Source: Alphaproteobacteria bacterium
GTDB taxonomy: Bacteria; Pseudomonadota; Alphaproteobacteria; JASGCL01
DNA length: 64,000 nucleotides
Assembly: GCA_051010635.1 (NCBI GenBank)
Contig: JBPCVJ010000002.1
Span: 14,848 to 78,847, forward strand
Reading direction: 5' to 3'
In this document: one piece after another, positions 5,335-51,481 of the stretch
Layout of the letters: each line of letters begins with the position of its first letter
Position numbering within the stretch: the stretch's first letter is position 1
Program-made: the position numbers and the translations under genes
Notes under the pieces: model-generated
Seen by the model: only the letters and a program-made list of their open reading frames with translations
Database searches by the model: none
Told to the model about the DNA's origin: nothing

Positions 5335-5349
5335 ATTTTATAAAATTTT

Positions 5350-7102: not shown

Positions 7103-7125
7103 AATTTTTTTTATATTTTATCTAT
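7094..7125. terminator. Weak AT-rich inverted repeat between convergent genes (possible bidirectional terminator)
   Basis: atagataaaat (7095-7105), a 9-nt loop, then attttatctat (7115-7125). It overlaps both stop codons. The stem is almost entirely A/T, so stability is low. Confidence 0.2.
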
Positions 7126-8580: not shown

Positions 8581-8849
8581 TTTTTATCCCCCTCAAATAA
8601 AACCAAAAAAGTAAGCGAACGATAAACCCTTATCAATAATTGAAAAAAATGAATATGTTTGCGTAAAATTTTATCCAATTTCAAAAACAAAAATGGTAAA
8701 TAACATAAAGTCAAAATAACAATAGCCCATTTCACATGAAAGGGAGCATTTTTTAATGATTGTTTAACAAATAAAATATGGGGTGGCTTGACCGCTTTGC
8801 GAAAATGAAGCGGCAATGAATGATGTGTCATCAAACGCACGAATATCAT
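8577..8849 (-). CDS. Small hypothetical membrane protein (90 aa) packed between the SDR and GMC genes
   Basis: The ORF exactly fills the gap: its start is 7 nt after the SDR stop and its stop overlaps the GMC start. One predicted TM (WAIVILTLCYLPFLFLKL). No recognisable family. Confidence 0.35.
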   Translation of the reverse strand: MIFVRLMTHHSLPLHFRKAVKPPHILFVKQSLKNAPFHVKWAIVILTLCYLPFLFLKLDKILRKHIHFFQLLIRVYRSLTFLVLFEGDKK

Positions 8850-8855
8850 ATTGAT

Positions 8856-9896
8856 TTAAAAAATTTTTGATGCTTGCTTGGCAAGGGATAATATCCCGCG
8901 CGGCACTGGCTTGCGATGGGTGGATTGATGGGTTTTATCAAAAGAAGAATAGTTTTTTAAATACCAGCGATAGCTATCAACCATCATATCAACATTGCCA
9001 TATTTCGGTTGCCAGCCAAGTGCTTTGGTTATATGGGTAATATCATAATAAAAATCCTTGTGATAACTTAAATAATGCCATGGACCCAAGGGGGATAATT
9101 TTAACTTATCTGCCGTCAATAAAACCAATTTAGCCAAACCAATCGGTAAAGAAATAACTTTTGATTTTGCACCAACTTTTTTAATAAAAGCTTCTAGGTC
9201 ATGCCTTAAACAGCCAAATGGCAAACCACCAACATTAAATAAACCAGATTTTTTTAACAGGGATGCCCTTACACTCACATTCGCCAAATCTTCAACCTGC
9301 ACAAATTGAAACAAATTATTACCCTTGCCAATGATAAAGATATTGGCATCGTCTTTTATCCAATCAAATAATATTTCAAATATACCAAGCCGTTCCTTGC
9401 CAATGACGGTGCGTGGTCTTATTAAACAGGCTGGCAAACCATCTTTCATCGCCTGTTGCACCAATTTATCAGCATCGGCTTTGGCTTTGCCATATTGTTC
9501 TATCGGTTGCAATGGCGCATTGGGCAAAATAGGCATGGTTTTGGCTAAACCAAAAATTGCCGATGATGACATATTACAAAGCATTTTGATATTATGCTTG
9601 AAACCCATATCAATAATATTTTTTGTGCCCACCACATTGACTTCATGAAATTTTTTGCCCGCTTTCGCCAATGGCACCAAAGCGGCATTGTGGTGAATAT
9701 GGGTAACATGTTTCATCACCTTATCGACTGCCGCCTTATCGGTTACATCCAAATAGGCAAAATGATCCTTGAATTCATCATTTTGCCAAATATCGGTTAG
9801 TAATATATTTTGTTTTTTTGCCAAAAGTTGCCTAGCAATATGGCTACCCACAAAACCCGAACCGCCGGTTATCAAATGTAAATCATTATTTGCCAT
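8856..9896 (-). CDS. NAD-dependent epimerase/dehydratase (extended SDR)
   Basis: N-terminal LITGGSGFVGSHIARQLL Rossmann motif; 346 aa with extended-SDR layout. Confidence 0.8.
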   Translation of the reverse strand: MANNDLHLITGGSGFVGSHIARQLLAKKQNILLTDIWQNDEFKDHFAYLDVTDKAAVDKVMKHVTHIHHNAALVPLAKAGKKFHEVNVVGTKNIIDMGFKHNIKMLCNMSSSAIFGLAKTMPILPNAPLQPIEQYGKAKADADKLVQQAMKDGLPACLIRPRTVIGKERLGIFEILFDWIKDDANIFIIGKGNNLFQFVQVEDLANVSVRASLLKKSGLFNVGGLPFGCLRHDLEAFIKKVGAKSKVISLPIGLAKLVLLTADKLKLSPLGPWHYLSYHKDFYYDITHITKALGWQPKYGNVDMMVDSYRWYLKNYSSFDKTHQSTHRKPVPRGILSLAKQASKIF

Positions 9897-10050
9897 GGTT
9901 ATACCCCATCAATATTTTAATCATTTTATCTATGGTTATAAATATCATCGCCATTCATCTGTTTGTTGGTCTTATTAGCCAATATCATAGCGATTGGCAA
10001 ATAGATAATTATCTTGTTATTTTAATAAAAATTATTTATCAACTAACATC

Positions 10051-10677
10051 ATGACGCAAAAAATTTTTCTAAAATGTTTGCTTTATATTGGCTATTATAG
10101 CTGTGGGTTATTTTTAGGATTCCTATTTTATATATTTGGAATGGCATTAGGTATGTTTGATAATGATTTGCTATTTTACCGCGGCATGAAAGTTATTTTG
10201 GTAAGCCAAATATTTTTGCTTGGCTTGTTATTCTTTTTTGATAAAATCATCAACCAGCACCAAAATACCAAAATAAATCAGCTATTAACATTGGCACCAC
10301 TGAAACCCCATATCATAGCCATTGTGCTTGTAGGGGCAAGTATCAATGTGTGTTTTCATTCGGTTGTGCCCACGATCATTGATAGATCCATCAGCGTTTT
10401 TTTATTAGGGTTCACCCATAATTTAGAAAAAAATAATCAAACAGCTAATATTGATAATTGGCGTCAAGGGTTTGATAAAATCTATGCCGATGATTATCAA
10501 GCCATCGAGCGGCGACTAGAAGAACAGATAAGAAGCGGTAATGTTATAACAACATCAAATGGCACAATTATGCTTACCAACAAAGGCAAACAATTTCTTA
10601 TAGCGGCGGCTTACCTTAACAAATTATTGGGGATTGATAATAAACATGTTAACCCGCCCGTTGATAAATTAAATTAG
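10051..10677 (+). CDS. Hypothetical membrane protein (about 4 TM N-terminal half, soluble C-terminal half)
   Basis: 208-aa ORF directly upstream of the GT-C-like gene (23-nt gap). Hydrophobic segments LLYIGYYSCGLFLGFLFYIFGMALGMF, VILVSQIFLLGLLFFF, IIAIVLVGASINVCF. No PAP2 or GtrA motif recognised. Confidence 0.45.
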   Translation: MTQKIFLKCLLYIGYYSCGLFLGFLFYIFGMALGMFDNDLLFYRGMKVILVSQIFLLGLLFFFDKIINQHQNTKINQLLTLAPLKPHIIAIVLVGASINVCFHSVVPTIIDRSISVFLLGFTHNLEKNNQTANIDNWRQGFDKIYADDYQAIERRLEEQIRSGNVITTSNGTIMLTNKGKQFLIAAAYLNKLLGIDNKHVNPPVDKLN

Positions 10678-10699
10678 ACCAAATATATTATCGCCCACC

Positions 10700-12508
10700 A
10701 TGCTACATCAGGTCAATCATCTTAAAACCAGCCCCATCTATATTACCTTTACTGCCATAACGATAATATTATATGGTTTGGTTATTTTCTTTGCCAAATA
10801 TGGGTTTGATATACTTGATGAGGGGTGGTATCTTTTCACTATCACAGACCCTGATTTTACCAAATCACGGTTTCATTATGGTTTGGGGTATCATTATCTT
10901 TTTCTTTTATTAAATGAAAATATTATTCATTTAAGAATTGCCAATATCATTATTTTTTTCATATTGGCATTCTTATTAGCAAAAGAAATTCTTTTTTCTT
11001 ATTTCAAATCATTCAAATTACGCCCTTATCAATTTTTTATTTTATGCGTGGCAATGGCATCCATATCATTATTATATTTTGTTATCATTTACACACCCAG
11101 TTATAATTCTCTTGCTATCAAAGCCCTCATCATTATAGCCATAGGTCTTATCAATATCCTTAATCACCCTACGCCAAAATTAAAAAAATGGTGGCAACAA
11201 AATAGGTGGGGTGCATTAATTTTAGGATTTGGCATGTTTTTACTTTTTCTTGCCAAACCATCATCATTTTTAGCTGTTTGTTTTTTTCTATTGATGATAT
11301 TTTTATTTTATAAATCATCTAGACTGCTCTTTATAATAGCTGGCATCGCAAGCAGTTCACTATTTTCCATTTATATTATTTTATATTTTGAAGCCGATAT
11401 TATCAAATATATTGAAGAAACAAAAAACACTATCATCGCCCTTCATAAGTTAGATCGCCATTATACATGGATCACTCAATTAAACCTATTGCGGGGGATT
11501 TACATACCCAACATAGCATATATTTTCCTTGCCCTGCCCCTCATATATAAAATAGCACTTACCTATCGCCCATCAAGCTCATGGCTTATCATTCGTTTTA
11601 TCAATCGGTATATTGATATATTTATTATGATATGTTTGTCATTGGGTATAGGTTTGGTAAAACCTTCTCATGTATATGCTTTACAAACTTTTTTTGCCAT
11701 CATGATAGTTTATTGGGCTATTTTGATAAATATATTTCACAATAATAAATTCATTGACCAATTATTAAACCCCAAGATATTTGCCATTATATTATTTTGT
11801 TTTTTATCACCCTATCTATTTGCCTTTGGCACAGCCAATATTATATTGTTTCAAATGTGCTTAGGCGCAATTTTATTTGCATTATGCGCTATTTTATTAT
11901 TATCATTTTTACCAAACAAGCCAAATTATCTTTATATCGGTATTTTATTTTCACAATTATTAACTTTTTATTGCACCACCTATTATATCCACCACCCTTA
12001 TCGCCATATTTCTTTTTTTTCTAACCAATTGGCACCATTAAAATTTTATGATAGCCATAACAAACCCTACTACCTCACCGTATCACAAAATTATAAAAAA
12101 CTAATAGAAAAAAGTCGGTCAATTTTTTATAATAATGGTTTTGCCGCAGGAACGCCCATTATAGATGCAACAGGTGTAGCAACCGGAATTATATTTGCGC
12201 TTGATGCCACCCCATTGGGGCGATATTTTTTAATTACCGAAACTGCTATCAAACATGATATTAAACAAAATCAATGCGATAGAATTGCAAAATCTTGGCT
12301 GATGACCATGCCAAGCCGCACAAATGACCTTTGGGGCGTTGTGCCATTACGCCCCAAAGAAATATTAAAAACCTATCATGCCGACCTAAAAACCGATTAT
12401 GATTTTATAGGCAATATCACGGCTTTAAATTTTCGCACCAAAGGCAAAACCGAAACCATCAATTTCTATCGCCCCAAACCTATACTAAAAACCAAATGTA
12501 AAAAATAA
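10700..12508 (+). CDS. GT-C-like polytopic membrane glycosyltransferase (ArnT/PMT-like architecture)
   Basis: 602 aa with more than 10 TM segments. TM1 is followed immediately by the acidic motif FDILDEGWY, the position of the catalytic DE/DD in GT-C enzymes. Lys-rich C-terminal tail. Confidence 0.5.
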   Translation: MLHQVNHLKTSPIYITFTAITIILYGLVIFFAKYGFDILDEGWYLFTITDPDFTKSRFHYGLGYHYLFLLLNENIIHLRIANIIIFFILAFLLAKEILFSYFKSFKLRPYQFFILCVAMASISLLYFVIIYTPSYNSLAIKALIIIAIGLINILNHPTPKLKKWWQQNRWGALILGFGMFLLFLAKPSSFLAVCFFLLMIFLFYKSSRLLFIIAGIASSSLFSIYIILYFEADIIKYIEETKNTIIALHKLDRHYTWITQLNLLRGIYIPNIAYIFLALPLIYKIALTYRPSSSWLIIRFINRYIDIFIMICLSLGIGLVKPSHVYALQTFFAIMIVYWAILINIFHNNKFIDQLLNPKIFAIILFCFLSPYLFAFGTANIILFQMCLGAILFALCAILLLSFLPNKPNYLYIGILFSQLLTFYCTTYYIHHPYRHISFFSNQLAPLKFYDSHNKPYYLTVSQNYKKLIEKSRSIFYNNGFAAGTPIIDATGVATGIIFALDATPLGRYFLITETAIKHDIKQNQCDRIAKSWLMTMPSRTNDLWGVVPLRPKEILKTYHADLKTDYDFIGNITALNFRTKGKTETINFYRPKPILKTKCKK

Positions 12509-12535
12509 AATCAATGTTCAATTTATCCCATGCGA

Positions 12536-13966
12536 TTAACATTCTGGCAGGGCAACCGAAACTTTACTGGCAAGCCCACCCTCGGAGGTTTCTTTGTATT
12601 TATGCATCATATCCTTCCCCGTTTCCATCATGGTTTCAATCACCTTATCCAAACTCACCAGATGCTCGCCATTGCCATGTAAGGCAAGGCGTGAAGCATT
12701 GATAGCCTTCACCGCACCCATGGTGTTGCGTTCAATGCATGGCACCTGCACCAAACCCTTTATCGGATCACAAGTTAGACCAAGATTATGCTCCATACCT
12801 ATTTCGGCAGCATTTTCTACCTGCTCAACCGAACCACCCATGGCTGCCGTCAATCCCGCAGCCGCCATAGAACAAGCCACACCAACCTCCCCTTGGCAAC
12901 CCACTTCGGCTGCCGATATGGAAGCATTTTTTTTATAAAGCATACCTATTGCCGCAGCGGTTAGCATAAAAATTCGCATATTTTTTATATCCTTACCACC
13001 TGGCACAAATCTATGGTAATAAGCCATCACAGCAGGAATAACCCCTGCCGCACCATTGGTCGGGGCGGTAACCACACGACCACCAGCGGCATTTTCTTCA
13101 TTCACTGCTAGGGCAAACACATTCACCCAATCCATGGTTTTCATAGGAATTTCATCAAGCTCCACATCGCCCAATTTCATTTTTATTTCTTGATTCGATT
13201 TTTCTAAATTATCGGCTATTTGTTTGGCACGCCGCCGAATATTAAGCCCACCGGGCAAAATTCCTTCTTGTTGTATGCCACGCTCAATAGAATTGTTCAT
13301 CGCCTGCCAAATATTATCTATAGATTTTTCAATATCTTCTTGCTTACGCCACACCAATTCATTTTCCATCAATAGTTCGGCAATGGTAATATTTTTTTTC
13401 TTGGTGATGCTTAACAATTCTTCGGCACTGTGAAAAATATTGGGCAAAACCACATTGCTTGATGCAGCGGCATTGCTAACGCCGCGGTTAAATTCTTCAT
13501 CGCTTAATACAAAACCTCCCCCCACCGAATAATATGTGTCTTGATAAATCAATTTGCCATTTTTATCGGTGGCAATAAATTCCATCGTATTGGAGTGTTT
13601 TTCTTTAAATTCGCCATAACGAAAATCCAAATGTTTTTCATAAATAAACTCAATTTCATGTTGCTGATGAAGCAAAAGTTTTTTGGATTTTTTGACATGT
13701 TGAATCTTATTTTCAACCAAATTAGGGTCGGTTTCATCTGGTTTTTCGCCCATCAAACCAAGCACAATGGCACGGTCGGTGGCATGCCCCAACCCCGTCA
13801 TAGCCAACGAGCCATATAGTTTCACCGTCAATTCAGCCACATGGTTTAATTTTTTTTGGGTTACCAAATCAGCCACATACCGATTTGCTGCCACCATAGG
13901 CCCCACCGTGTGCGAACTAGACGGCCCAATACCAATTTTAAATAAATCAAAAACCGATAGATGCAT
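12536..13966 (-). CDS. sdaA: L-serine dehydratase, single-chain Fe-S type
   Basis: [24 protein letters not shown] is the canonical SdaA N-terminus, and Cys-containing beta-domain motifs are present. Start at ATG complement 13964-13966. Confidence 0.9.
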
Positions 13967-14078
13967 AATGATACATTCTACCACAAAAAGCCACGATTAT
14001 CAAAAAATTATTGTATTTATATTAAAAATAATTTAGAAAAAACAAGCAAACTATCATTTTTTTACCATCATTCGCATC

Positions 14079-15878
14079 ATGCATATCAAATTAAAACCAT
14101 TATGGTCCTATCGCCATATTGCCATATTTTTGCTTTTGCTAACGGCTTGCTTTTTTTCTTTTTATAAAAATAGCTTTCGCATCGTAAAAAATAATTATCT
14201 TTTTTACCAAACACCCAGCTATGATGAAATGTTGGTCATTGGTAGAATTTTGGTTGATGAATATAACTTAAAAAAAATAATTACGGTGTATAATTTAGAT
14301 AAAATTGATAAACACAATACCAACAGATATGTTGGAAAAGAAGGGGCGACAAAATATAATTTGCTGTGGCCAGATGTGCCTTACCATTTAAGACTTTCTT
14401 ATATTTTTCAATTGCCACAAAATATATTACAAAATAACCAGCCGATTGACGATATAACATTATCACCCATTGCCTATGAAACAAAATGGTGGAAAAAACC
14501 TAACATCATATTTAATAACATATTTAAATTAAGTGATGATAAAATATATTTAACTAGAATAAAGGTCAAAAAAGATAAACTCAATTTTAAACAACATTAT
14601 CAATATAGGAATCAGCCAAGCGAAACAGCCTATAGACATGATTACAGCTACAGCGGTAGAACATTGCTTATCGGCAATTACAAAACCATGGTAAGGCAAG
14701 TTTTATATAGCCCTGCCTCAGACCTTGCCTATATCCACACCACCATACCCCCCGATGAATTACAAAAAATAAAAAAAAATAATTCCACTATCACCCTATC
14801 GGGCAATGTAATGGAAAAAGAAATATTACAAAACAATGTGCGTTTCGCCAGTTATATCAGCACCGTGGGATTACATGGTTATATTTTTTCTTGGCTGTTT
14901 CAACACAGCGATAAAAACCTTGAAACATTGTGGAAAATCACATCATTATTATCGGCATTGGTTATCGTTGGTTTAACATTTTTATATTATCGCAGTCATA
15001 TTTTTCCCAAAGGTTTTGCCATTAGTTTTTTTGCAAGTTTATTCTTATCGGTTATTTTTACCGCCTATGCTAGAGATCTTTATTGGCTACCCTTCACATG
15101 GTTCTTACCATCTATCTTTGCTATCCTCTATATCAAGGCAGAAAACCATTGGCATAGAATTATTTATATATTGCTGACCTATCTTGCCTTTACCTTAAAA
15201 AATATCACCACTGGCTATGAGATAACATCCAGCGTCATATTAATGGCGGCAGCACCAGCGGCTTATTTGCTATTAACCAGCCAATCACTCAATCAAAAAA
15301 TTATCGCCCTCAAAAAATTTTTTATGATATGTTTTCTAGGCGTAGCAGGTTTTTTCACCAGCCTATTGATACTTGCCTACATCAGGGGCGATTCTAATAT
15401 AATTGATGGGTTAAAATCCATTTATGATGTCAATATAACCAAACGCATTATCAATAAAAGCGATGAGAATATTCCTGGCTACATAAGGGATTCCTCCATA
15501 TCTTATTATGAAGTATTTAAAATATTCTTTCGCTGGAATCATGATTGGGGTTATCCCCAAACATTAAACATAATTGATTGGTTACCGATAAAATTTGTTC
15601 ATTTATTTTTCTTATCTTTTTTTATCACTCTATCCAGCTGGGTGGTGCCATTCTTACAACACAAAAAATATATCTATAACAGTCTATTTATCATATTCTT
15701 TCTTACCGCTTCATCTTATATTATCTTGGCAAAATATGATGCCTATCTACATATATTTCAAAATTTGGTTTTGTGGTATTTTGGTTTTATTGCCGCCATG
15801 TTCTATATCATTGCCAGTGGTATGATGACTTATGGCAAAATAATACTTGCCTATGGCAAAAAGAAAATAGCTGTCTGA
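14079..15878 (+). CDS. GT-C-like multi-pass membrane glycosyltransferase (intact paralog of the frameshifted 5350-7102 gene)
   Basis: 599 aa. N-terminal TM, then a conserved acidic motif (RILVDEYNL versus LVADEYSID in the paralog), then at least 10 TM segments. Long collinear identity blocks with the 5350-7102 product (e.g. ETLWKITSLLSALVIVGLTFLYYRSHIFPKGF). Confidence 0.55.
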   Translation: MHIKLKPLWSYRHIAIFLLLLTACFFSFYKNSFRIVKNNYLFYQTPSYDEMLVIGRILVDEYNLKKIITVYNLDKIDKHNTNRYVGKEGATKYNLLWPDVPYHLRLSYIFQLPQNILQNNQPIDDITLSPIAYETKWWKKPNIIFNNIFKLSDDKIYLTRIKVKKDKLNFKQHYQYRNQPSETAYRHDYSYSGRTLLIGNYKTMVRQVLYSPASDLAYIHTTIPPDELQKIKKNNSTITLSGNVMEKEILQNNVRFASYISTVGLHGYIFSWLFQHSDKNLETLWKITSLLSALVIVGLTFLYYRSHIFPKGFAISFFASLFLSVIFTAYARDLYWLPFTWFLPSIFAILYIKAENHWHRIIYILLTYLAFTLKNITTGYEITSSVILMAAAPAAYLLLTSQSLNQKIIALKKFFMICFLGVAGFFTSLLILAYIRGDSNIIDGLKSIYDVNITKRIINKSDENIPGYIRDSSISYYEVFKIFFRWNHDWGYPQTLNIIDWLPIKFVHLFFLSFFITLSSWVVPFLQHKKYIYNSLFIIFFLTASSYIILAKYDAYLHIFQNLVLWYFGFIAAMFYIIASGMMTYGKIILAYGKKKIAV

Positions 15879-41044: not shown

Positions 41045-41047
41045 ACT

Positions 41048-41130
41048 CTTGCGATATAGCCTATAGAGATGTTATATTAGATGAAGATTAGAATCTTACC
41101 ACTTGCGATATAGCCGTAAAAATGTTATAT
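41048..41130 (+). promoter_or_regulatory. Imperfect direct repeat (2 x about 29 bp, 54-bp period) upstream of the toxin-antitoxin pair; candidate operator/promoter
   Basis: CTTGCGATATAGCC-TATAGAG-ATGTTATAT at 41048-41077 and CTTGCGATATAGCC-GTAAAAA-ATGTTATAT at 41102-41130, read directly. Confidence 0.35.
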
Positions 41131-41171
41131 CAAACAAAAGGGGGAAAAACTGTGAAAAAGGCAAAAAAACT

Positions 41172-41342
41172 ATGACTGATAAAAACACAACTAATATAAA
41201 ACCCAAAAAAAATATTGGGAAAAAAATGGCTACTGCCGAACCGTCTGGCTTGACCGAAAAACAAAAGGCAGATATTGAATTTGTGGTAAATGATATTTAT
41301 CGTAGATACCCCATTACCATGCGAAAATTAGCCGATGGTTGA
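41172..41342 (+). CDS. Putative antitoxin partner of the Doc-family toxin (Phd-like position)
   Basis: Small ORF (56 aa from ATG 41172; the TTG-initiated ORF from 41103 runs inside the repeat). Its stop overlaps the Doc gene start by 8 nt, the typical type II TA arrangement. No sequence-level family match made. Confidence 0.45.
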   Translation: MTDKNTTNIKPKKNIGKKMATAEPSGLTEKQKADIEFVVNDIYRRYPITMRKLADG

Positions 41343-41784
41343 TTCTGTCAAGTCTCTTTTTGTTGAAGAAATTAAGGCATTAACTATCATTGCACAAAAA
41401 AAGGCGGTTGAAAAAAAACATGAGCCTATTCCTGATTTTTCGACCCGTTATGATGGAAAATTGGAAAGTTGTTTAAACACACCCTTTACCAGTTTTGGTG
41501 AGGTTGATGTCTACCCTGATTTGCCAGCAAAAGCATCTATTTTGTTTTATTTGATGGTTAAAAACCACCCCTTTCAAAATGGTAATAAAAGAATAGCTGT
41601 TATAACTTTGGGTTATTTTTTATACAAAAACCAGCATATTTTATATATACCAGATGCAAATTTATACCAATTAGCAACATTCGTTGCCGCGTCCGAGTCT
41701 GAAAAAAAAGACTATATGATGAGTATATTAAAAGGTCTTATAGGTTATTTTATGAAACCAGCAACCCCCAAACAATCTAATTGA
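41335..41784 (+). CDS. Doc/Fic-family toxin (death-on-curing-like)
   Basis: NHPFQNGNKRIAV matches the Doc motif HxFx(D/N)GNKR; 149 aa. Confidence 0.7.
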   Translation: MVDSVKSLFVEEIKALTIIAQKKAVEKKHEPIPDFSTRYDGKLESCLNTPFTSFGEVDVYPDLPAKASILFYLMVKNHPFQNGNKRIAVITLGYFLYKNQHILYIPDANLYQLATFVAASESEKKDYMMSILKGLIGYFMKPATPKQSN

Positions 41785-41790
41785 CCAATA

Positions 41791-42120
41791 TTGGTGGTTA
41801 AAAAATGGTTGAAAAAAAATACTGGTTCTGTTAAAAAAAATTCTATGCAGATATTACAAAAAACTATCAGACGGGTGAGGCGAATACAAACCATTGATAG
41901 AATCATTCATAAAATTAGTGATAAAAAAATTGATAACATTCTTTCTTCGCCCTTCATTAAAAAAATGGGGCAAAATATAAAACATTCTTTACCAAGTTAT
42001 TTTTGGGGGGATAATTGGTTACCAACACATATTTCACAATGGAGTATCAATATGACGCTTCAATCAATTGAGGCTTTGCCCGAATCGTTGCTTAATATCA
42101 TTAAAAAAAATGAAATATAA
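41791..42120 (+). CDS. Hypothetical basic protein (109 aa)
   Basis: ORF only; Lys/Arg-rich N-terminus; no motif recognised. Confidence 0.3.
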   Translation: MVVKKWLKKNTGSVKKNSMQILQKTIRRVRRIQTIDRIIHKISDKKIDNILSSPFIKKMGQNIKHSLPSYFWGDNWLPTHISQWSINMTLQSIEALPESLLNIIKKNEI

Positions 42121-42913
42121 TTTAGATCACCTAAATCAACCAGAAAATCAAATCGTGGAAGGTCCTATCCAAGATGATGATGCGTTATTTTTGTTTGCTA
42201 TCATAAGATCTATGGAAATAAGACGCATATTAGAAATTGGTGGATTATCAGGTTATTCGGCAACAAATTTTTTAAAAGCTTTTCGTGAACCAAGTCAATC
42301 GGTGGTTTATACGGTGGATCGCAAGCCTGTTCCCAAAATTGCCGATAACCATCAAGTCATTGTAAAGGATGCAAGATATATCACCATGCAAGATATTGGC
42401 AATCAGCCGCTTGATATGATTTTTTTTGATTGCCATGATTATTATGTGCAAATGGCAATATATAATAATTTTGTCAAAAATGGCATCATCACCAATAAAA
42501 CGCTTTTGGTATTGCACGACACCGATACCATTAAAGTAAAACCCGATGAATTGCCACATAGCAAAAAAAGAAAATATTGGAATAAGCGCGAAAGACTCCT
42601 ACATGATTATTCATTGCCACCAGATAAAAAAAATGGCGAATATCTAGAATGCGCCCATCAACCAGTTGAGCGTGATATGGTAAATAAATTAACTTCTTTG
42701 GGTTATCACCCATTTTCGTTGCATGGTATCAAGCAAAATATAACTAGCAAAAAACCCTATACCTATGGCACCACGGTGATGCAAAAATTTAAAAAATTAC
42801 CCTTGCCCAAACAATATCTACGAATAAGAAAAAGAACAATGTGGCTAAAAAAAAATGCCTATTTTTTATATAAACCCTTGCGGAAAATTTATAAAAAAAT
42901 TCAAAAAAAATAA
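42110..42913 (+). CDS. Class I SAM-dependent methyltransferase, CmcI/O-methyltransferase-family-3-like
   Basis: Motif I ILEIGGLSGYSA, then DMIFFDCHDYYVQMAIYNNFVKNGIITNKTLLVLHDTD (the D-x-IF-x-D-x-H-x-Y ... VVDD pattern of the CmcI family). Start at MKYNLDHL (42110). Lys-rich C-terminal 80 aa. Confidence 0.6.
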   Translation: MKYNLDHLNQPENQIVEGPIQDDDALFLFAIIRSMEIRRILEIGGLSGYSATNFLKAFREPSQSVVYTVDRKPVPKIADNHQVIVKDARYITMQDIGNQPLDMIFFDCHDYYVQMAIYNNFVKNGIITNKTLLVLHDTDTIKVKPDELPHSKKRKYWNKRERLLHDYSLPPDKKNGEYLECAHQPVERDMVNKLTSLGYHPFSLHGIKQNITSKKPYTYGTTVMQKFKKLPLPKQYLRIRKRTMWLKKNAYFLYKPLRKIYKKIQKK

Positions 42914-42917
42914 TCAT

Positions 42918-44969
42918 TCATTCTTGTAATTCTAATCGCCAATAGATGATGGTTTTTCCCGGTGCGGTTTGCCCTGATAACATCATCACTTGGCAAGGTT
43001 CTTTGATAAAATTATTCAAAAAAAATCCTTTGGTCAAAGAAAGGGTTGCCCCCCTTGCCAACAATCGCCCACCCGATTTATCGCTTGATTGCAAAAAAAC
43101 CTCTTGCAATGATGTCATCTTACTTTCTAATTTTTTATCAGGATGTTCACTAAAAATAAGCGGTTCAATAATCACCCCGCCCATATTCTGTTTGTTGCCC
43201 TTTATATTATCCTTATCATGGTTTTTTAGCGATCTCTGCCAATGCTGTTCCAAATCACTAATATGCGAATCGCTTTTGCCAAAAGCCTTCACCGCGGGCG
43301 ATAATGGCAATAGCAAAAAAAAATCCATACCACCAGGGGCGATAATTGTTTCCATCACCTTGATAGAAACCTTGCCCGATGTAGGTTTTGGCATAAATAT
43401 TCTTCTTTCCACCATCAGCCGTTGATATTTTTTATCACCCGCTAAAGCACCTAATTTTTTTTCAAGATTTTTTCCGCCATCAAAAAATTTTTTCCCCACC
43501 AACATCTTACCATTTGGCAATAAAAATTTTTGGCAACTGGCAAAATGCCATCCGCCTTTCAATGCAGAATCTATTTCATAAAATTGTATATCATTACCAA
43601 AATAATAAAAATTTTTATTATCAAACCATTTTTTCCACAACAAAGGTTTAAGCATTTTTTCCACCACCTGCCCCATAGCCCCTGCTTTGGCTGGCTGGCT
43701 AGGCAACCACACCCCCGATTCAATAAAAGATTTTTTCTTAAACACCACATCAAAATTCATCATCAAATGGTTATTAATATTTTGGTGTTTTTGCCCCCCC
43801 ACCGCATCAAGGTTATGATGATACCGCCATTTTTGCCAGGGCAATATCATCGGCAATGATTTTTTCATAACCATCTGCGTTGGTTTTTTTATCTTATCAT
43901 GCCCCACCATTGATAAAATAAATTGCCTATCGCTTAACATTAATGGCACATGGGAAAGCCTAACATGTTTGGGCGGAATTTTTGGCATGGTAATTTTTAT
44001 TGACCGCAATTGGTCGTCTATTCTTTCTAAAACTTCACGATAGATCGGGTAATGGTCGCGTAATTGATAATAAAGTTTTTTATCCATCGCCATCTGCAAA
44101 CTATAACGCCAATTTTGTAAAGATTGGCTGATAATTTTTTCATATGTGGCATCAGCACTATTCAATAACCAATGGGTTAGGCTAGCCAAATTCAACAGCA
44201 TCAAAAAAGGCGATGCCATAGGCATCCGCCGATCGGTAGCAAGGTCAAGCAATTCCAAAAGATGATAATGAATTTTTTTACTACGCAACCAAAACACCAC
44301 AGGCAATTCGGCTGGGGATTTTTTTCTTACCATTTTGCGTTGTTGCTCGGCACGATAAAATATATCCAAATGGGTCAAGGCGAATGCTTGATGCAAAGCC
44401 GTTAGATGATATATTTCATAAGTTTTTTTAAAAAATGGCAAAGGAATTTTTTTTTGCATTATCGGCATCAAGTGATCAATGGCTTGTTGTCGCCATTTAC
44501 CCACATCGGCACGCGCCGCATTGTCATCTATGGTGGTTATATCAATCGCTACTATGGAACGCAAAATTAACCCCGCCAATATAGTTATCACCAATCTATC
44601 CACCGCTGGCTGGTGGGATAATATCATATCAACCATTTTATCTTGGCATGGCAACAGATGGTATTTTTTTTGTGCCGACATATCGGTCATATCCAAAGGA
44701 TATCGTTGTGGCAAAATTGCCAAATGCTGTGGCGACAAGTAAGGCAAATGCGATAGGCTGAGGTTTAAAAAATCATAAAAAGATGGTAGAGGAAAATCCA
44801 CCATCTTATCATGGTGGGGGTTATCAACCCCACCCAACCCCAAATCACCAAAAAGATTATCGGGGGTTAATATCACCCTTTCCAATTTTTCAAATAATGA
44901 TTCATTACCCAAAAAAACCGCAGGGGCTATAGCTAAAGAAATCGCCAGAGGTTTTTTTTCTATCACCAT
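42918..44969 (-). CDS. Large conserved hypothetical protein (683 aa), downstream of ubiG and co-oriented with it
   Basis: Long intact ORF separated from the ubiG stop by 22 nt. No TM segments and no motif I can assign. Confidence 0.5.
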   Translation of the reverse strand: MVIEKKPLAISLAIAPAVFLGNESLFEKLERVILTPDNLFGDLGLGGVDNPHHDKMVDFPLPSFYDFLNLSLSHLPYLSPQHLAILPQRYPLDMTDMSAQKKYHLLPCQDKMVDMILSHQPAVDRLVITILAGLILRSIVAIDITTIDDNAARADVGKWRQQAIDHLMPIMQKKIPLPFFKKTYEIYHLTALHQAFALTHLDIFYRAEQQRKMVRKKSPAELPVVFWLRSKKIHYHLLELLDLATDRRMPMASPFLMLLNLASLTHWLLNSADATYEKIISQSLQNWRYSLQMAMDKKLYYQLRDHYPIYREVLERIDDQLRSIKITMPKIPPKHVRLSHVPLMLSDRQFILSMVGHDKIKKPTQMVMKKSLPMILPWQKWRYHHNLDAVGGQKHQNINNHLMMNFDVVFKKKSFIESGVWLPSQPAKAGAMGQVVEKMLKPLLWKKWFDNKNFYYFGNDIQFYEIDSALKGGWHFASCQKFLLPNGKMLVGKKFFDGGKNLEKKLGALAGDKKYQRLMVERRIFMPKPTSGKVSIKVMETIIAPGGMDFFLLLPLSPAVKAFGKSDSHISDLEQHWQRSLKNHDKDNIKGNKQNMGGVIIEPLIFSEHPDKKLESKMTSLQEVFLQSSDKSGGRLLARGATLSLTKGFFLNNFIKEPCQVMMLSGQTAPGKTIIYWRLELQE

Positions 44970-44990
44970 AATCTATTGCAATGTTGTTGT

Positions 44991-45782
44991 TTAAAAACTG
45001 GCGGTTAAAAAATAATTAACCTTAAAATTATTTTTTGACAAGGCAGTTTTTTTTAATAAAGGATTATACAAAAGCCCCGTCAAATCTTTTGGCAATAACC
45101 CTGCCAGACGACAATAACCACTCAATTCTTCGGGGCGAACAAATTGCCGATATTGATGCGTGCCTTTTGGCAAAAGATGCAAAATATATTCTGCCCCAAC
45201 AATTGCCAACAAAAAAGAATTGAGATTACGATTGATGGTTGAAAATATCACCAAGCCATCAGGTTTAACCAATTGAGCAATGTTTGCCACAAATTTTTTT
45301 CCATCCATCACATGTTCAATCACCTCCATCGCCAACACCATATCAAATGCCGCCAGATTTTTTTTATCGGCTAATAATATCTCAGGTGTTGCCACATCAA
45401 AGGTCAAACCATCATAGAATTTTTGTTTTGCCTGATAGGTGCGTGCCACCTTGATAGTGGTTGGCTCGGCATCTATACCAAGCACCACCCCCCCCCATTG
45501 ATATAAAGCCACCGATAACAACCCACCGCCACAGCCAATATCAAGAATTTTTTTGCCCGCTATACCATGACCACAATGTGCCTGCCATTGCTGTTGAATA
45601 TAATCGCACCTGATAGGATTCAATTCATGCAAAGGGCGAAACGCCCCATCGGGGCGCCACCATTCCTCAGCCATAGTTTGAAATTTTGCCAATTCATCAT
45701 CGCTGATATTATTGGTAAATGATGATGAATCGCCCTTAGCACCATATAATTTATTTTTTGTATTTTTTTTCGCCCGTGCCAT
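44991..45782 (-). CDS. ubiG: Bifunctional 3-demethylubiquinol 3-O-methyltransferase / 2-polyprenyl-6-hydroxyphenol methylase
   Basis: UbiG N-terminal region EEWWRPDGAFRPLHELNPIRCDYI and SAM motif I KILDIGCGGGLLS. Divergent from lysC, a conserved alphaproteobacterial arrangement. Confidence 0.9.
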   Translation of the reverse strand: MARAKKNTKNKLYGAKGDSSSFTNNISDDELAKFQTMAEEWWRPDGAFRPLHELNPIRCDYIQQQWQAHCGHGIAGKKILDIGCGGGLLSVALYQWGGVVLGIDAEPTTIKVARTYQAKQKFYDGLTFDVATPEILLADKKNLAAFDMVLAMEVIEHVMDGKKFVANIAQLVKPDGLVIFSTINRNLNSFLLAIVGAEYILHLLPKGTHQYRQFVRPEELSGYCRLAGLLPKDLTGLLYNPLLKKTALSKNNFKVNYFLTASF

Positions 45783-45944: not shown

Positions 45945-47264
45945 ATGGCAAAAAACACAAAAAAACATAATACCAATATAAAAAAAACTATCTTGGTCAA
46001 AAAATTTGGCGGTACATCGCTTGGCAATAAACAACGCATCCATGCCACAGCCAATATTATCAAGCATTTTTATCACACCAGCAATGATGGTTTATGTATT
46101 GTGGTATCGGCTATGGCAAAAGAAACCGACCGACTAGTATCGCTGGTGGCGGATATTTTAGAACATGACAAATTTTTTCATCGCACCCGTGAATATGATG
46201 CGGTGGTGGCATCGGGCGAAAATGTCAGCGCAGGTTTATTGGCACTTGCCCTAAATCATATCGGCATCAAGGCAAAATCATGGCAAGGTTTTCAAATCCC
46301 GATTGAAACCGATGACCAGCATGGTATGGCACGCATCACATCAATCAATATAACGGCAATAAAAAAATCTATCCTTAATGGCGAGGTGGCAGTGATAACT
46401 GGGTTTCAAGGCATCAACCATCAAGGATCTATCACCACCTTAGGGCGGGGCGGGTCAGACACATCGGCAGTGGCAATGGCGGTGGCACTTGGGGCAAGGC
46501 GGTGCGATATCTATACCGATGTTGATGGCGTTTATCGCATTGACCCAAAATGGCTGATGGCGGCAAAAAAAATCCCTGCCATTGCATATGAAGAAATGTT
46601 AGAAATGGCATCTTTGGGGTCGGGGGTATTGCACGCCCGTTCGGTTGAATTGGCAATGAAATGCAAAATGCCTTTACAAGTTTTATCAAGTTTTGTAGAA
46701 CCAAAAAACCCCAATGCCAAAAAAAATGGCACGATGGTGCTTGATGAAAAATCTATTACAAAAAATATGAAAAATAATATCGAAGAAAAACTTATCACCG
46801 CTGTGGCAGTTGATAACCAAGAAGCCAAAGTTACGATTTATAAAATCAAAAACCAACCGGGTATGGCGGCTATCATATTTGGTTTATTGGCAGATGCCAA
46901 TATCAATGTTGATATGATTATTCAATCGGGCTCGCACCACGAAAGGGGCGATGAATTTTCTGACATCACCTTTACCTTGCCACGCCAAGAATTAGCCCAT
47001 GGGGTCAAGGTGCTTGAACAAAATCAAACCGCTATCGGTTATGAAGATATTTTAGCCGATGCCGATGTAGCAAAAATTTCCATCATTGGTGTGGGTATGA
47101 GGTCATCGCCAGGGGTGGCAAAAACTATGTTTGCCACATTGGCAAGTGCTGATATCAATATCGAAGCCATTGCCACCAGCGAAATAAAAATCAGCGTGCT
47201 GGTGAAGGAATCCCATGCCCCCCGTGCGGCAAAATTACTGCATAAGGCTTTTCATTTGGGATAA
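45945..47264 (+). CDS. lysC: Aspartate kinase
   Basis: LVKKFGGTSLG kinase N-terminus and two C-terminal ACT domains (..AKVTIYKIKNQPGMAAIIFGLLADANINVDMI.. and ..ISIIGVGMRSSPGVAKTMFATLA..). Confidence 0.9.
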   Translation: MAKNTKKHNTNIKKTILVKKFGGTSLGNKQRIHATANIIKHFYHTSNDGLCIVVSAMAKETDRLVSLVADILEHDKFFHRTREYDAVVASGENVSAGLLALALNHIGIKAKSWQGFQIPIETDDQHGMARITSINITAIKKSILNGEVAVITGFQGINHQGSITTLGRGGSDTSAVAMAVALGARRCDIYTDVDGVYRIDPKWLMAAKKIPAIAYEEMLEMASLGSGVLHARSVELAMKCKMPLQVLSSFVEPKNPNAKKNGTMVLDEKSITKNMKNNIEEKLITAVAVDNQEAKVTIYKIKNQPGMAAIIFGLLADANINVDMIIQSGSHHERGDEFSDITFTLPRQELAHGVKVLEQNQTAIGYEDILADADVAKISIIGVGMRSSPGVAKTMFATLASADINIEAIATSEIKISVLVKESHAPRAAKLLHKAFHLG

Positions 47265-47303: not shown

Positions 47304-48788
47304 GTGAACATTGCTATAAGTATCTATATGAAAAATAAATTATTCTATGGCGATTGCTTGTCAGTTATGCAAGATAAAATGAAACCAGAATCGATTGATT
47401 TAATTTATCTTGACCCGCCTTTCAATTCTAACAAAACCTATAATGTAATTTATAAAGATAGCACAGGGCGACCATTGCCAGAAAATGTTGAAGCCTTTTG
47501 CGATATGTGGGAAATTGATGACGAGAAAGAACGCATTATTCAAAAAATGCCTATTCTAATGATGAAAAGTGGCATAGATAAATCAGCGGCAGAATTATGG
47601 CAATTGTGGATGCAGGCTTTAAGGAATACCCAACCAAAACTATTAGCATATCTTGCCTATATGACCGAACGGCTTTTACAAATGAAATTAATCTTAAAAC
47701 CAACAGGAAGTTTTTTTTATCATTGCGACCCAACCGCTAGCCATTATATCAAAATTATACTTGACGCAATTTTTGGACATCAAAATTTTACCAATGAAAT
47801 TGTTTGGTGTTATAAATCAGGCGGTGCAAGTTCATATTATTTTGCAAAAAAACATGATATTATTTTCTATTATAGAATGTCAAAGGAAAATTTTACTTAT
47901 AACAATGAAAAAGAAAAAAGTTATATGGGCAAAAATTATAAAACGGGTAATAAAAAAGTTAAATTATATAATGACAATAAAGGAATCTATACTTTAGTTA
48001 ATCCCAAAGATTGGTGGCAAATATCAATGATGGCGACCTCATCAAAAAAGCGAATGGGCTATGATACTGAAAAACCGCCTGCACTGCTTGAAAAAATTAT
48101 AAAAGCAAGTAGCAATGAAGAAGATATTATATTTGATCCATTTTGTGGTTGTGCCACTACACTTATTTCGGCACATAAATTAAATAGACAATGGGTAGGA
48201 ATTGATATTGCTTATCACGCCATAGATAAAATTTCACGAAATAGATTGTCACGAGATAACGCCCTAGCTGAAGGGATAGATTATGAAATTGATGGCATAC
48301 CAAACACGATGGAATCGGCAATGGCTCTGTGGGAAAAAGATAAATATCAATTTCAAAAATTTTTTGTTGAATATATTGGCGGTTTTGTAAGTAGCAAAAA
48401 AAGCAATGATGGTGGAGTTGATGGAGTGCTTTATTGGGCTGATGAAGGCAATACAAAAAATTTGCATAAAATGATAATTGAAGTTAAAGGCGGTGAAAAT
48501 ATAGCAAAAAGCGTCATAAGAGATTTGAGAGGAACAATGGAAAAAACAGGGGCACAGATGGCAGGGTTGATAGTAAGAGATATAGGCGATATTCAAAAAA
48601 GAAATTTTATACAAGAAATGGCACAGGCAGGCGATTATCAAGGCAAGAGGGAACGACCCTATACAAGAATGCAACTACTTACCATAGACGAAATTATAGC
48701 AGGCAAAAGATTTGATACCCCCGACCCCGAAAACATAACCATCAAAGGTGCAAAACAAGGTGTCTTACCTGTGGGCGATACCCGATAA
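47304..48788 (+). CDS. Beta-class (N6-adenine/N4-cytosine) DNA methyltransferase fused to a C-terminal Mrr-like PD-(D/E)xK restriction-endonuclease domain
   Basis: Motif IV LIYLDPPF near the N-terminus and motif I IFDPFCGCATTLISAHKLNRQWVGIDI near residue 280 (beta-class order). The C-terminal 190 aa contain SNDGGVDGVLYWADEG..(x)..KMIIEVKGGENIAKSVIRDLRGTMEKTGAQMAGLIV, matching the Mrr catalytic pattern DGGID ... (Q/E)xK ... vr.l.g. Confidence 0.75.
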   Translation: MNIAISIYMKNKLFYGDCLSVMQDKMKPESIDLIYLDPPFNSNKTYNVIYKDSTGRPLPENVEAFCDMWEIDDEKERIIQKMPILMMKSGIDKSAAELWQLWMQALRNTQPKLLAYLAYMTERLLQMKLILKPTGSFFYHCDPTASHYIKIILDAIFGHQNFTNEIVWCYKSGGASSYYFAKKHDIIFYYRMSKENFTYNNEKEKSYMGKNYKTGNKKVKLYNDNKGIYTLVNPKDWWQISMMATSSKKRMGYDTEKPPALLEKIIKASSNEEDIIFDPFCGCATTLISAHKLNRQWVGIDIAYHAIDKISRNRLSRDNALAEGIDYEIDGIPNTMESAMALWEKDKYQFQKFFVEYIGGFVSSKKSNDGGVDGVLYWADEGNTKNLHKMIIEVKGGENIAKSVIRDLRGTMEKTGAQMAGLIVRDIGDIQKRNFIQEMAQAGDYQGKRERPYTRMQLLTIDEIIAGKRFDTPDPENITIKGAKQGVLPVGDTR

Positions 48789-50023: not shown

Positions 50024-50382
50024 AGCCGTGGCTCGGCGATTGCAAATATGATAAATATTTGAGGAAAGTCGGGGCTTCGTTTTGGAATCCATTCCGCCTA
50101 ACTGGCGGCGGCATTGTTGGCGACGGCAATGTTAGTGAAAGTGTCACAGAAAATAACCGCCATCATGATGGTAAGGGTGAAAAGGTGGAGTAAGTGCCCA
50201 CCGCCATTTTAGCAATAGAATGGGCAAAGACAAACCAAATGGGAAGCAAGACCAAATAGGACTATCTTATAACTTTAATTCCAAAAAGTTGATAGTCGGG
50301 TTGGTCGCAAGACAATGGTGGCAACGCCATTGCTAGATGAATAATCGCCCAATACAGAACCCCGCTTATGAGCCACGGTATT
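50024..50382 (+). ncRNA. rnpB: RNase P RNA (bacterial type A)
   Basis: P1 pairing agccgtggctc (50024-) with gagccacggt (-50379); P4 signature gaggaaagtcggggcttcg; conserved aagggtgaaaaggtg and acagaaccccgcttat; U-rich tail 50390-50405. Confidence 0.85.
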
Positions 50383-50488
50383 TATTGTAACTACCTTTTT
50401 TGTTTTATCTTATAAAAAAATGTTTTTTTTATTGCAAATGGTGTTAAAAATGCATTAGCTTAACTATAATAGATTTATAAAAAACATC

Positions 50489-51481
50489 ATGGTTATAAAA
50501 TTAGATAAAAAAATCTATGGCAAGTTTTTTACTTGCCAGAATCCGTTTCGTTCTTTTTTATTTCAGCAATGGTTTAAAATGATACCTGCCTATCAAAATC
50601 AAACTATCCTTGAACCATTTGCAGGTGAAAACAATATTGTCAATTTGTTACGCGATGTTGGTATAGGCAATGATTTTAATTCATTTGATATTAACATTCC
50701 ATTAAATAATAAAGCTTCGGATGTTACCATTCAACAGCAAAATACACTAAAAAATTTTCCTAAAAATTATTCTATAGCTATTACCAATCCGCCATATCTT
50801 GCAAAAAATTCTGCAACCCGTGATAAATTGCCTTATCCAAAAATAAAATATGATGATATTTACAAATTCGCCCTTGATATAATGCTAAATCATCTTGATT
50901 TTGTTGCGGCTATTATTCCCGAATCTTTTATTACCTCTGGGTTGTTTCATCACAGACTTTACGGTGTGATTTCTCTTAATTATGAAATGTTTGATGATAC
51001 CGATTGCCCTGTTTGTCTCGCATTATTTATGCCGTTGCGTAATAAACATATTAATCCAAAAGATTTTGTTATTTATTGGGGCGATAAAAAAATTGGTTAT
51101 TATGAAAAATTATCAAAAAACATTATTTCAACACATAAAAGAAGCGATTGGCGTTTTAATGACCCTTCGGGACAAATTGGTCTTTATGCCATAGATACCA
51201 CAGAGGGTGCGACAATTCGTTTTGTGCGTGGTGAAGAAATAAATAGCAAAGAAATAAAAGTAACCAATCGGGGTATAACAAGGATTGGTAAAAACGACAA
51301 TGTTGACAGAGATGATATTATTAACAGAGCAAATGATGTTCTTACTATTTATCGCAAAGAAACTTATGATATTTTAATGACAGCTTTTCGTGGATTAAGA
51401 AAAGATGGCTACTACAGGCGACGATTATCTTTTTATCAAGCCAATCAAATTCTTACCCACGCATTAGCACAATATGTATAA
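50489..51481 (+). CDS. Gamma-class N6-adenine-specific DNA methyltransferase (orphan; no adjacent restriction endonuclease gene)
   Basis: N-terminal GKFFTCQNPFRSFLF (the G-x-(F/Y)-(F/Y)-TP helper motif of N6-A DNA MTases), motif I ILEPFAGENN, motif IV IAITNPPYLAKN about 58 aa later (gamma order); 330 aa. Confidence 0.65.
   Translation: MVIKLDKKIYGKFFTCQNPFRSFLFQQWFKMIPAYQNQTILEPFAGENNIVNLLRDVGIGNDFNSFDINIPLNNKASDVTIQQQNTLKNFPKNYSIAITNPPYLAKNSATRDKLPYPKIKYDDIYKFALDIMLNHLDFVAAIIPESFITSGLFHHRLYGVISLNYEMFDDTDCPVCLALFMPLRNKHINPKDFVIYWGDKKIGYYEKLSKNIISTHKRSDWRFNDPSGQIGLYAIDTTEGATIRFVRGEEINSKEIKVTNRGITRIGKNDNVDRDDIINRANDVLTIYRKETYDILMTAFRGLRKDGYYRRRLSFYQANQILTHALAQYV

Follow-up and report, generated by a model that had tools for sequence, protein, structure and literature searches.

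Between a toxin-antitoxin module and the ubiG gene of an alphaproteobacterial genome lies a stretch of DNA (positions 41791-44969) with three open reading frames (ORFs), which encode a basic 109-amino-acid (aa) protein, a methyltransferase, and a 683-aa protein, here called X. The question raised by this locus is whether the three genes form one functional unit and what X might do next to ubiG. The DNA analyzed, here called the window, is the whole stretch of 64,000 nucleotides (nt) from contig JBPCVJ010000002.1 (assembly GCA_051010635.1), a metagenome-assembled genome (MAG) labelled "Alphaproteobacteria bacterium" by NCBI, where the locus genes are ACR2NY_00630-00650 and X is annotated as hypothetical. 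A preliminary description of this DNA had treated the three genes as a block. The ORFs themselves were found where it had placed them, but they do not form one unit, being divided between an insertion and a conserved ubiG neighborhood: there is little doubt that the "block" consists of two elements that are unrelated and meet tail to tail, namely, the native gene for X and an acquired cassette. To the overall explanation, which has these two elements and also a lyase-like fold for X, we assign a probability of roughly 0.5. The features on which the argument draws are as follows.

41045..42917, plus strand: low-GC insertion of 1,873 nt with four co-directional genes, between the convergent stop codons of cysE and X
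41048..41077 and 41102..41130, plus strand: two direct repeats of ~30 bp, upstream of the antitoxin gene
41172..41342, plus strand: putative antitoxin, 56 aa in the NCBI annotation, assigned its role by position
41335..41784, plus strand: Doc (death-on-curing) toxin (Pfam Fic/DOC 1.2e-10, TIGR01550, PHROG Doc-like toxin 5e-18)
41791..42120, plus strand: 109-aa ORF from the ORF scan, with a pI of 10.5
42068..42913, plus strand: methyltransferase ORF from the ORF scan, with the probable gene at 42110..42913
42918..44969, minus strand: protein X, 683 aa, from the ORF scan, a clade-restricted orphan and apparently native
44991..45782, minus strand: ubiG, ubiquinone O-methyltransferase (TIGR01983 match, 3.4e-72)
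45945..47264, plus strand: lysC, from the ORF scan

We compared the gene order around X in all contigs carrying it. In every one of them the order turned out to be conserved: lysC is divergent from ubiG, ubiG is followed by X in the same orientation, X converges with a gene for a cysE-like hexapeptide transferase, and an alpha/beta hydrolase gene then reads in the direction of X. The succession of ubiG and X is kept in L001, L002/3, L004, L005, L010, and L011, and thus also in the most divergent member, L005, whose X is 33% identical. Only 3-4 nt separate the X stop codon from that of cysE in L001, L004, L010, and L011, without any insert, and the segment 41045-42917 is absent in all relatives carrying X. 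Except for two low-GC insertions, the window and L001 are collinear over more than 20 kb, through Abhydrolase_2, Maf, MgsA, Lnt, Def, the hydrolase, cysE, X, ubiG, lysC, DUF2497, and Amidase_2. The closest synteny breakpoint lies two genes off, with parC/gyrA-like genes in L002 and L004 versus def-lnt in L001 and the window. Base composition points the same way: the GC content of the insertion is 0.328, and the inserted genes have a GC content at third codon positions (GC3) of 0.27-0.30 versus 0.34-0.45 in 13 native genes, a range within which X falls (0.389), its overall GC content likewise agreeing with that of the genome. Judging by the synteny and these GC3 differences, X is very probably native, and the 109-aa ORF and the methyltransferase gene in all likelihood came in with the toxin-antitoxin pair. 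The low-GC four-gene cassette would have been acquired horizontally, entering the chromosome where cysE and X converge.

X is a vertically inherited gene confined to one alphaproteobacterial clade. Only five homologues were found among 5.8 billion proteins; a scan of GTDB genomes added one more genome and gave matches in 2 species only, both inside the same clade. X is present at full length in six genomes with 32-47% identity, which is far beyond chance, so the 683-aa ORF is a real gene. A HMMER profile search of 1.84e9 representative proteins returned the X family itself and nothing else, no relatives of X were detected in a JGI metagenome scan, and no paralogues were found within the window. 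The clade is an isolated one, whose UbiG proteins share 60-66% identity among themselves and no more than 49% with any outside sequence, and one of its genomes is small, with a complete chromosome, OZ241918.1, of 1.63 Mb. Within the syntenic block X is the fastest-evolving gene (44-47% identity, versus 54-90% in twelve neighbors).

One of the X-bearing contigs calls for a comment of its own. L002 (GCA_030054115.1, contig JASGCL010000007.1) is labelled "Hydrotalea sp." (Bacteroidota) by NCBI and is syntenic, gene for gene, with the X-bearing alphaproteobacterial MAGs, so that either the bin or its label is probably wrong.

We then examined the cassette, in which the genes for the antitoxin, Doc, the 109-aa protein, and the methyltransferase all read in one direction within 41045-42917. 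Doc matched its family in all three collections listed above (the Pfam entry being PF02661), and the Fic motif is intact in its translation, HPFQNGNKR fitting the consensus HxFx(D/N)(A/G)NKR. The stop codon of the putative antitoxin gene overlaps the Doc start by 8 nt, and the protein had no family match in Pfam or NCBIfam. Just past the cysE stop, upstream of the antitoxin gene, there are two direct repeats of about 30 bp each, CTTGCGATATAGCC and ATGTTATAT, set 54 nt apart, which may represent the toxin-antitoxin operator or else a duplicated junction. The cassette resembles the type II Phd/Doc cassettes that occur as small mobile insertions in its intact Fic motif, the small overlapping ORF upstream of the toxin gene, and the upstream direct repeats, and also in that a relative carries another toxin-antitoxin pair at the identical junction. 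Unlike them, it has an antitoxin that is not recognizable as Phd/YefM and carries two extra genes, and a search at the insertion boundaries found neither flanking terminal or target-site repeats nor an integrase. The 109-aa ORF and the methyltransferase gene would be the cargo of this Doc cassette.

The other pair just mentioned, SocA_Panacea with a 137-aa protein, occupies the cysE/X junction in L002 and L003 (L002 10369-11315, equal to L003 6357-7303). Toxin-antitoxin modules thus appear to have landed repeatedly at the convergent cysE/X junction.

The start of the methyltransferase gene is most likely the ATG at 42110, giving a gene at 42110-42913, because the viral homologues of the protein align from residue 1 of the MKYNL encoded there; this ATG and the stop of the 109-aa ORF overlap by 11 nt. 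The protein had been described as CmcI-like on account of three motifs. All three (LEIGGLSGYSA, MIFFDCHDYY, and LLVLHDTD) are present in it, but they are generic motifs of class I S-adenosylmethionine (SAM)-dependent methyltransferases, and the CmcI profile (PF04989) matched neither the window protein at E ≤ 0.1 nor the 27 members of its family at E ≤ 0.01. The window protein did match Methyltransf_24 (PF13578), with 30.5 bits versus a cutoff of 26.3, and weakly Methyltransf_3; among the family members, 27/27 matched the former and 23/27 the latter. When the 27-member family profile was run against the PDB, the only matches were to chains of the O-methyltransferase family 3/COMT-like type (3r3h at 1.8e-5, 8c9v, 3ntv, and others), and CmcI structures were absent from the matches at E ≤ 1. 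Judged by these matches, the protein is a class I SAM-dependent enzyme of the Methyltransf_24/O-methyltransferase family 3 type. It shares with CmcI the Rossmann fold of the class, a glycine-rich motif I, and the broad superfamily to which Methyltransf_24 belongs, and differs from it in that the family has no match to a CmcI hidden Markov model or structure.

Searches for homologues of the methyltransferase gave 242 proteins of about 208 aa with 44-57% identity. Two of them are encoded on long contigs amid genes of nucleocytoplasmic large DNA viruses (NCLDV), namely, those for the major capsid protein, TFIIS, SNF2, and the DUF5755/5824/5792 families; NCLDV capsid genes also lie near homologues in L008/9, L018, L041, and L042, and 37 IMG/VR contigs, many of them named GVMAG, carry the family. 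A few of the loci contain phage terminases, i.e., some of the contigs are phage-like rather than of giant-virus type. The motifs LEIGGLSGYSA (motif I), YTVD, FFDCHD, and LHDT are invariant over 27 sequences, the window copy included. About 27 of the 119 ORFs flanking the methyltransferase gene in 32 viral loci are glycan related; by family the flanking ORFs comprise RGP (6 of the 119), DUF3431 (6), GDP-mannose dehydratase/epimerase (5), FkbM methyltransferase (4), GT2 (4), and UDP-galactopyranose mutase (GLF; 2). BLAST comparison across the viral loci revealed no single gene as a conserved neighbor, the glycan enrichment being found at the level of families only.

Giant viruses are known to modify the glycans of their capsids by methylation, using class I enzymes of about 209 aa; one such enzyme is PBCV-1 A061L, a rhamnose 3-O-methyltransferase of 209 aa (PMC9614988). 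The homologues of the window protein resemble A061L by description, being class I SAM-dependent proteins of about 208 aa encoded on NCLDV contigs, often next to glycosyltransferase and nucleotide-sugar enzyme genes. The proposal that the methyltransferase acts on sugars gains some support from the glycan genes that adjoin its viral homologues, and by descent it is probably a sugar O-methyltransferase. The window copy departs from A061L-type enzymes in residing in a bacterial toxin-antitoxin cassette and in having a 24-aa insertion, a basic C-terminal tail of about 40 aa that ends 4 nt from the X stop, and four invariant residues replaced: R36E, H211I, R218T, and H219Y affect positions that are invariant in the other 26 members. 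In all, it differs at 9 of the 72 columns that are at least 90% conserved. Motif I, FFDCHD, LHDT, and HQPVER are retained and there is no frameshift, and the protein can be regarded as a divergent, possibly decaying member of a giant-virus-type family. It would be stranded in this genome outside any glycan cluster, altered at conserved positions.

A protein of the same viral type, P0053 (413 aa), is a fusion of the methyltransferase with a DUF3431 domain. Since DUF3431 also accounts for 6 of the 119 flanking ORFs, this fusion suggests that DUF3431 is a functional partner in viral glycan synthesis, possibly glycosyltransferase-like.

Of the possible objections to the above, the one that survives best concerns the cassette itself. 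It holds that the 109-aa ORF is a chance frame in an AT-rich spacer between Doc and the methyltransferase gene, and that the latter is a decaying passenger. The ORF is indeed basic, as had been described, and rich in Lys, Ile, and Asn, with a GC content of 0.294; it starts with TTG, or is 91 aa long if read from M19 (ATG 41845), as in the NCBI annotation (hypothetical ACR2NY_00640, a singleton cluster). No homologue of it was found in the giant-virus loci, the clade loci, plasmids, or phages, nor any family match in Pfam, NCBIfam, PADLOC, or PHROGs, and the substitutions of R36, H211, R218, and H219 in the methyltransferase, together with its unconserved insertion and tail, fit decay. On the other hand, the frame is open over 330 nt, begins 6 nt past the Doc stop, and overlaps the methyltransferase ATG in an operon-like manner, while the methyltransferase has its core motifs intact in a continuous frame. 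The coding status of the 109-aa ORF is uncertain, because its composition is AT-rich and Lys-rich and the tight operon-like spacing is the sole argument in its favor. A chance frame with a decaying passenger is in our estimation quite possible, at somewhat less than even odds.

We next turn to X itself. The statement that the 683-aa protein is uncharacterized and probably soluble has held up. No Pfam match was obtained at E ≤ 10 in any of 5 members of the family, no NCBIfam match at E ≤ 10, no match in PADLOC or PHROGs, and no match to PDB sequences, whether with single sequences or with profiles of the full-length protein and its C-terminal part. The ATP-grasp, GT-B, and kinase folds that had been put forward for X were rejected, as no search gave any support for them. 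A candidate transmembrane helix at residues 126-144 was likewise rejected, having invariant Arg and Asp residues inside and not being hydrophobic in homologue P0005. At the N terminus there is a short hydrophobic stretch, LAIAPAVFLG; its conservation is that of mature sequence, and in P0005 its length is insufficient. From a reading of the alignment, there is no convincing signal peptide and no conserved transmembrane helix, and X is probably soluble. The alignment contains about 150 invariant positions, with the motifs IYHL..LH, IHYHLLE, DHYP, LPWQ, CQK.LLP.G, PLSP..AFG, EQHW, and PCQV..LSGQT.PG, and also low-complexity inserts that vary between members; examples are a stretch rich in Pro, Thr, and Gln in homologue P0004 and HGHSHGHS in homologue P0003.

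To obtain an indication of the fold, structures were modelled from an alignment of only 5 sequences. The full-length AlphaFold2 model had a mean predicted local distance difference test score (pLDDT) of 34.5, with helices up to about residue 330 and strands from about residue 450. The C-terminal 312 residues modelled alone gave a predicted template modelling score (pTM) of 0.47 and a mean pLDDT of 44, with core strands at pLDDT 55-72. Structure comparison of this low-confidence C-terminal model returned the PL35 chondroitinase (score 10.4), PL17 alginate lyase (10.4), Heparinase II (10.0), GAGase II (9.5), PL33 (9.4), dermatan-sulfate epimerase (9.1), Heparinase III (8.9), and PL15 (8.7), as well as GH63, GH15, GH65, and GH94 enzymes and aldose epimerases. 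Foldseek gave the same set, weakly, at E values of 2e-3 to 2e-2, including Alg17c, HepC, and DS-epimerase, and heparinase II/III and AlgL17 were matched again when the full-length model was used.

These matches make it about an even bet that the C-terminal domain of X is a galactose-mutarotase-like beta-supersandwich. X would then be a two-domain protein in which a variable linker joins an all-helical N-terminal part (about 330 aa) to a C-terminal supersandwich of about 230 aa (approximately residues 450-683). A helical domain followed by a supersandwich is the order of heparinase II/III-type lyases, not that of the GH15/63/65/94 enzymes. Because this is the domain order of heparinase II/III-type lyases and glycosaminoglycan epimerases, action on a glycan is the most likely of the functions considered for X, which would bind the glycan, or cleave or epimerize it, through conserved His/Tyr residues, candidates being the invariant Y187/H188, Y235/H236, and H306/Y307. 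Taken by itself, such an action is a tentative proposal with the odds well against it, and the lyase-like fold is a lead of moderate strength coming from the models.

Several observations weigh against this explanation. Both models of X are of low confidence, and because they derive from only 5 sequences the fold match may be partly an artefact; the N-terminal fold is not resolved in them, and the N-terminal (alpha/alpha) toroid of heparinase II/III-type lyases is not confirmed in X. No sequence-level similarity of X to any lyase was detected in Pfam at E ≤ 10 or with PDB sequence profiles, the Hepar_II_III and alginate-lyase domain profiles gave no match in the 5 members at that threshold, and in this respect X differs from the heparinase II/III-type lyases (PL12, PL15, PL17, PL21, PL33, and PL35) and from dermatan-sulfate epimerase alike. 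Polysaccharide lyases are usually secreted, and most characterized members of the heparinase II/III type are periplasmic or extracellular, whereas X is devoid of a clear signal peptide. A literature search on alphaproteobacterial heparinase II/III-like proteins found nothing. The fast evolution of X and its low-complexity inserts would equally fit a non-enzymatic or host-facing protein. As for the cassette, the methyltransferase gene may have passed from virus to bacterium or the reverse.

An alternative to the lyase-like reading follows from these last properties of X. The protein could be a fast-evolving, lineage-specific, non-enzymatic protein (envelope-structural, host-interaction, or effector), with the beta-sandwich serving as a binding module. 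Its orphan distribution, its rank as the fastest-evolving gene of the block, and the variability of its inserts in P0003 and P0004 all agree with this, as does the small chromosome within the clade; L004 has an ankyrin-repeat gene and the window a giant-virus-like one, both of them hints of life with a eukaryotic host. Against it, His, Tyr, Asp, and Cys residues cluster in motifs (IYHL..LH, IHYHLLE, DHYP, EQHW, and PCQV) among the roughly 150 invariant positions, as would rather be expected of an active site or a tight fold; X has no recognizable secretion signal, and the eukaryotic-host association of the clade is a hint only. We regard such a non-enzymatic role as unlikely.

The position of X next to ubiG had led to the proposal of a ubiquinone accessory factor, and it raises two separate issues, of transcription and of function. 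The 683-aa gene had been said to end 22 nt after the ubiG stop; in fact X starts there, on the same strand, after a gap of 21 nt (44970-44990). In the other genomes the genes are also on the same strand, the gaps ranging over 21-137 nt in all, and no terminator-like hairpin was found in the intergenic sequence of the window. X is probably cotranscribed with ubiG, as had been supposed, because of the common strand, the 21-nt gap, and the lack of a terminator.

Function is another matter. According to this proposal, X would be a clade-specific ubiquinone accessory factor, for instance a scaffold or lipid-presenting partner of UbiG, with which it is coexpressed. The linkage is by no means unique to this genome, since it occurs in 6/6 X-bearing genomes, down to L005, and the UbiG of the clade is itself divergent, with an N-terminal extension. 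These six genomes, however, all belong to one small clade with general collinearity, in which the neighboring lysC, cysE, and hydrolase genes are as invariant as the pairing of ubiG with X, so that the tie of X to ubiquinone is one of position and nothing else. X showed no Pfam or NCBIfam match to known Ubi/Coq families (UbiJ/K/B/T/U/V and Coq4/9), nor any relative outside the clade in the 1.84e9 representatives; a factor serving a pathway that is universal in aerobic proteobacteria should be distributed more widely than about six genomes, and the fold hint, for what the model is worth, is of the carbohydrate type. Like UbiJ, UbiK, UbiB, and UbiT, X is encoded by a gene that adjoins a ubi gene; unlike them, it is much larger, restricted to one clade, without homology to any of them, and without an SCP2 or kinase-like domain. 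The ubiG loci of the closest non-clade UbiG proteins have a HAD phosphatase gene downstream, which is generic and uninformative. We consider an accessory role in ubiquinone synthesis improbable. A long shot of the same order is that X founded a new family, recruited to ubiquinone synthesis by a single deep-branching clade as a partner of its unusually divergent, N-terminally extended UbiG, for example a scaffold or substrate-presenting subunit in place of a Ubi accessory factor, or else that X is an enzyme whose catalytic N-terminal domain, attached to the supersandwich, is wholly new.

Compared with the 233-250 aa of most other UbiG matches, the UbiG proteins of the clade (window 44991-45782 and P0127-P0129) are long, at 263-288 aa, and are extended at the N terminus by a basic stretch of about 25-40 aa.

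A single module of the 109-aa protein, the methyltransferase, and X, tailoring the glycan of the 4-16 kb locus, can practically be dismissed, being largely refuted by the distribution data: the methyltransferase family is glycan associated in viruses, X may, on its model, carry a carbohydrate-type domain, and at 4-10 kb of the window there is a UbiA-like/GMC-oxidoreductase/epimerase locus, but X and the methyltransferase gene are convergent and differ in origin and composition, the latter sits in a low-GC insertion absent from every relative, the two do not co-occur in any other genome (0/242 homologues of the methyltransferase are accompanied by X), and more than 25 kb separates the pair from the glycan-like locus, which leaves the joint role once suggested for them unsupported.

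Some further features of the window were noted along the way. A gene at 47304-48788 (plus strand; GC, 0.34) encodes a 494-aa N6/N4 DNA methyltransferase (PF01555, 3e-40; PADLOC Type II/III MTase). All relatives have lysC and the DUF2497 gene side by side, and this gene separates the two as the second window-specific insertion; no cognate restriction enzyme was noticed in passing. The region 4471-15878, called a glycan locus above, contains genes for a UbiA-family prenyltransferase (4471-5334), a GMC oxidoreductase (7111-8580), and an SDR epimerase (8856-9896), together with five ORFs without a Pfam match (186, 430, 208, 602, and 599 aa). It has less the look of a standard glycan cluster than of a polyprenyl-phosphate-sugar (decaprenyl-phospho-arabinose-like) pathway whose membrane transferases are unknown. 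At 50024-51481, RNase P RNA (50024-50384, 254 bits) is followed by a 330-aa ORF without a Pfam match. This stretch, bounded by the genes for Amidase_2 and the NAD_binding_2 dehydrogenase, is a further variable spot, occupied in the relatives by other genes: L001 has DUF3800, Exo_endo_phos, and PLDc_2 there, and L004 an orphan of 465 aa.

Hypothetical proteins restricted to one lineage are common, and no current understanding is overturned by either X or the cassette. If the fold hint is true, the heparinase II/III-type lyases and epimerases would have in X a relative that is an orphan by sequence and apparently cytoplasmic, from an alphaproteobacterial lineage with a small genome, and it would test how far the lyase architecture reaches beyond the recognizable CAZy families. 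Its conserved pairing with ubiG raises the question of whether X affects quinone synthesis. The cassette indicates that a methyltransferase family typical of giant viruses can reside in a bacterial chromosome beside a Doc toxin-antitoxin pair, and it adds one more data point to the gene flow between viruses of eukaryotes and bacteria, which is already known (PMC11323580, PMC11364636, PMC5751055).

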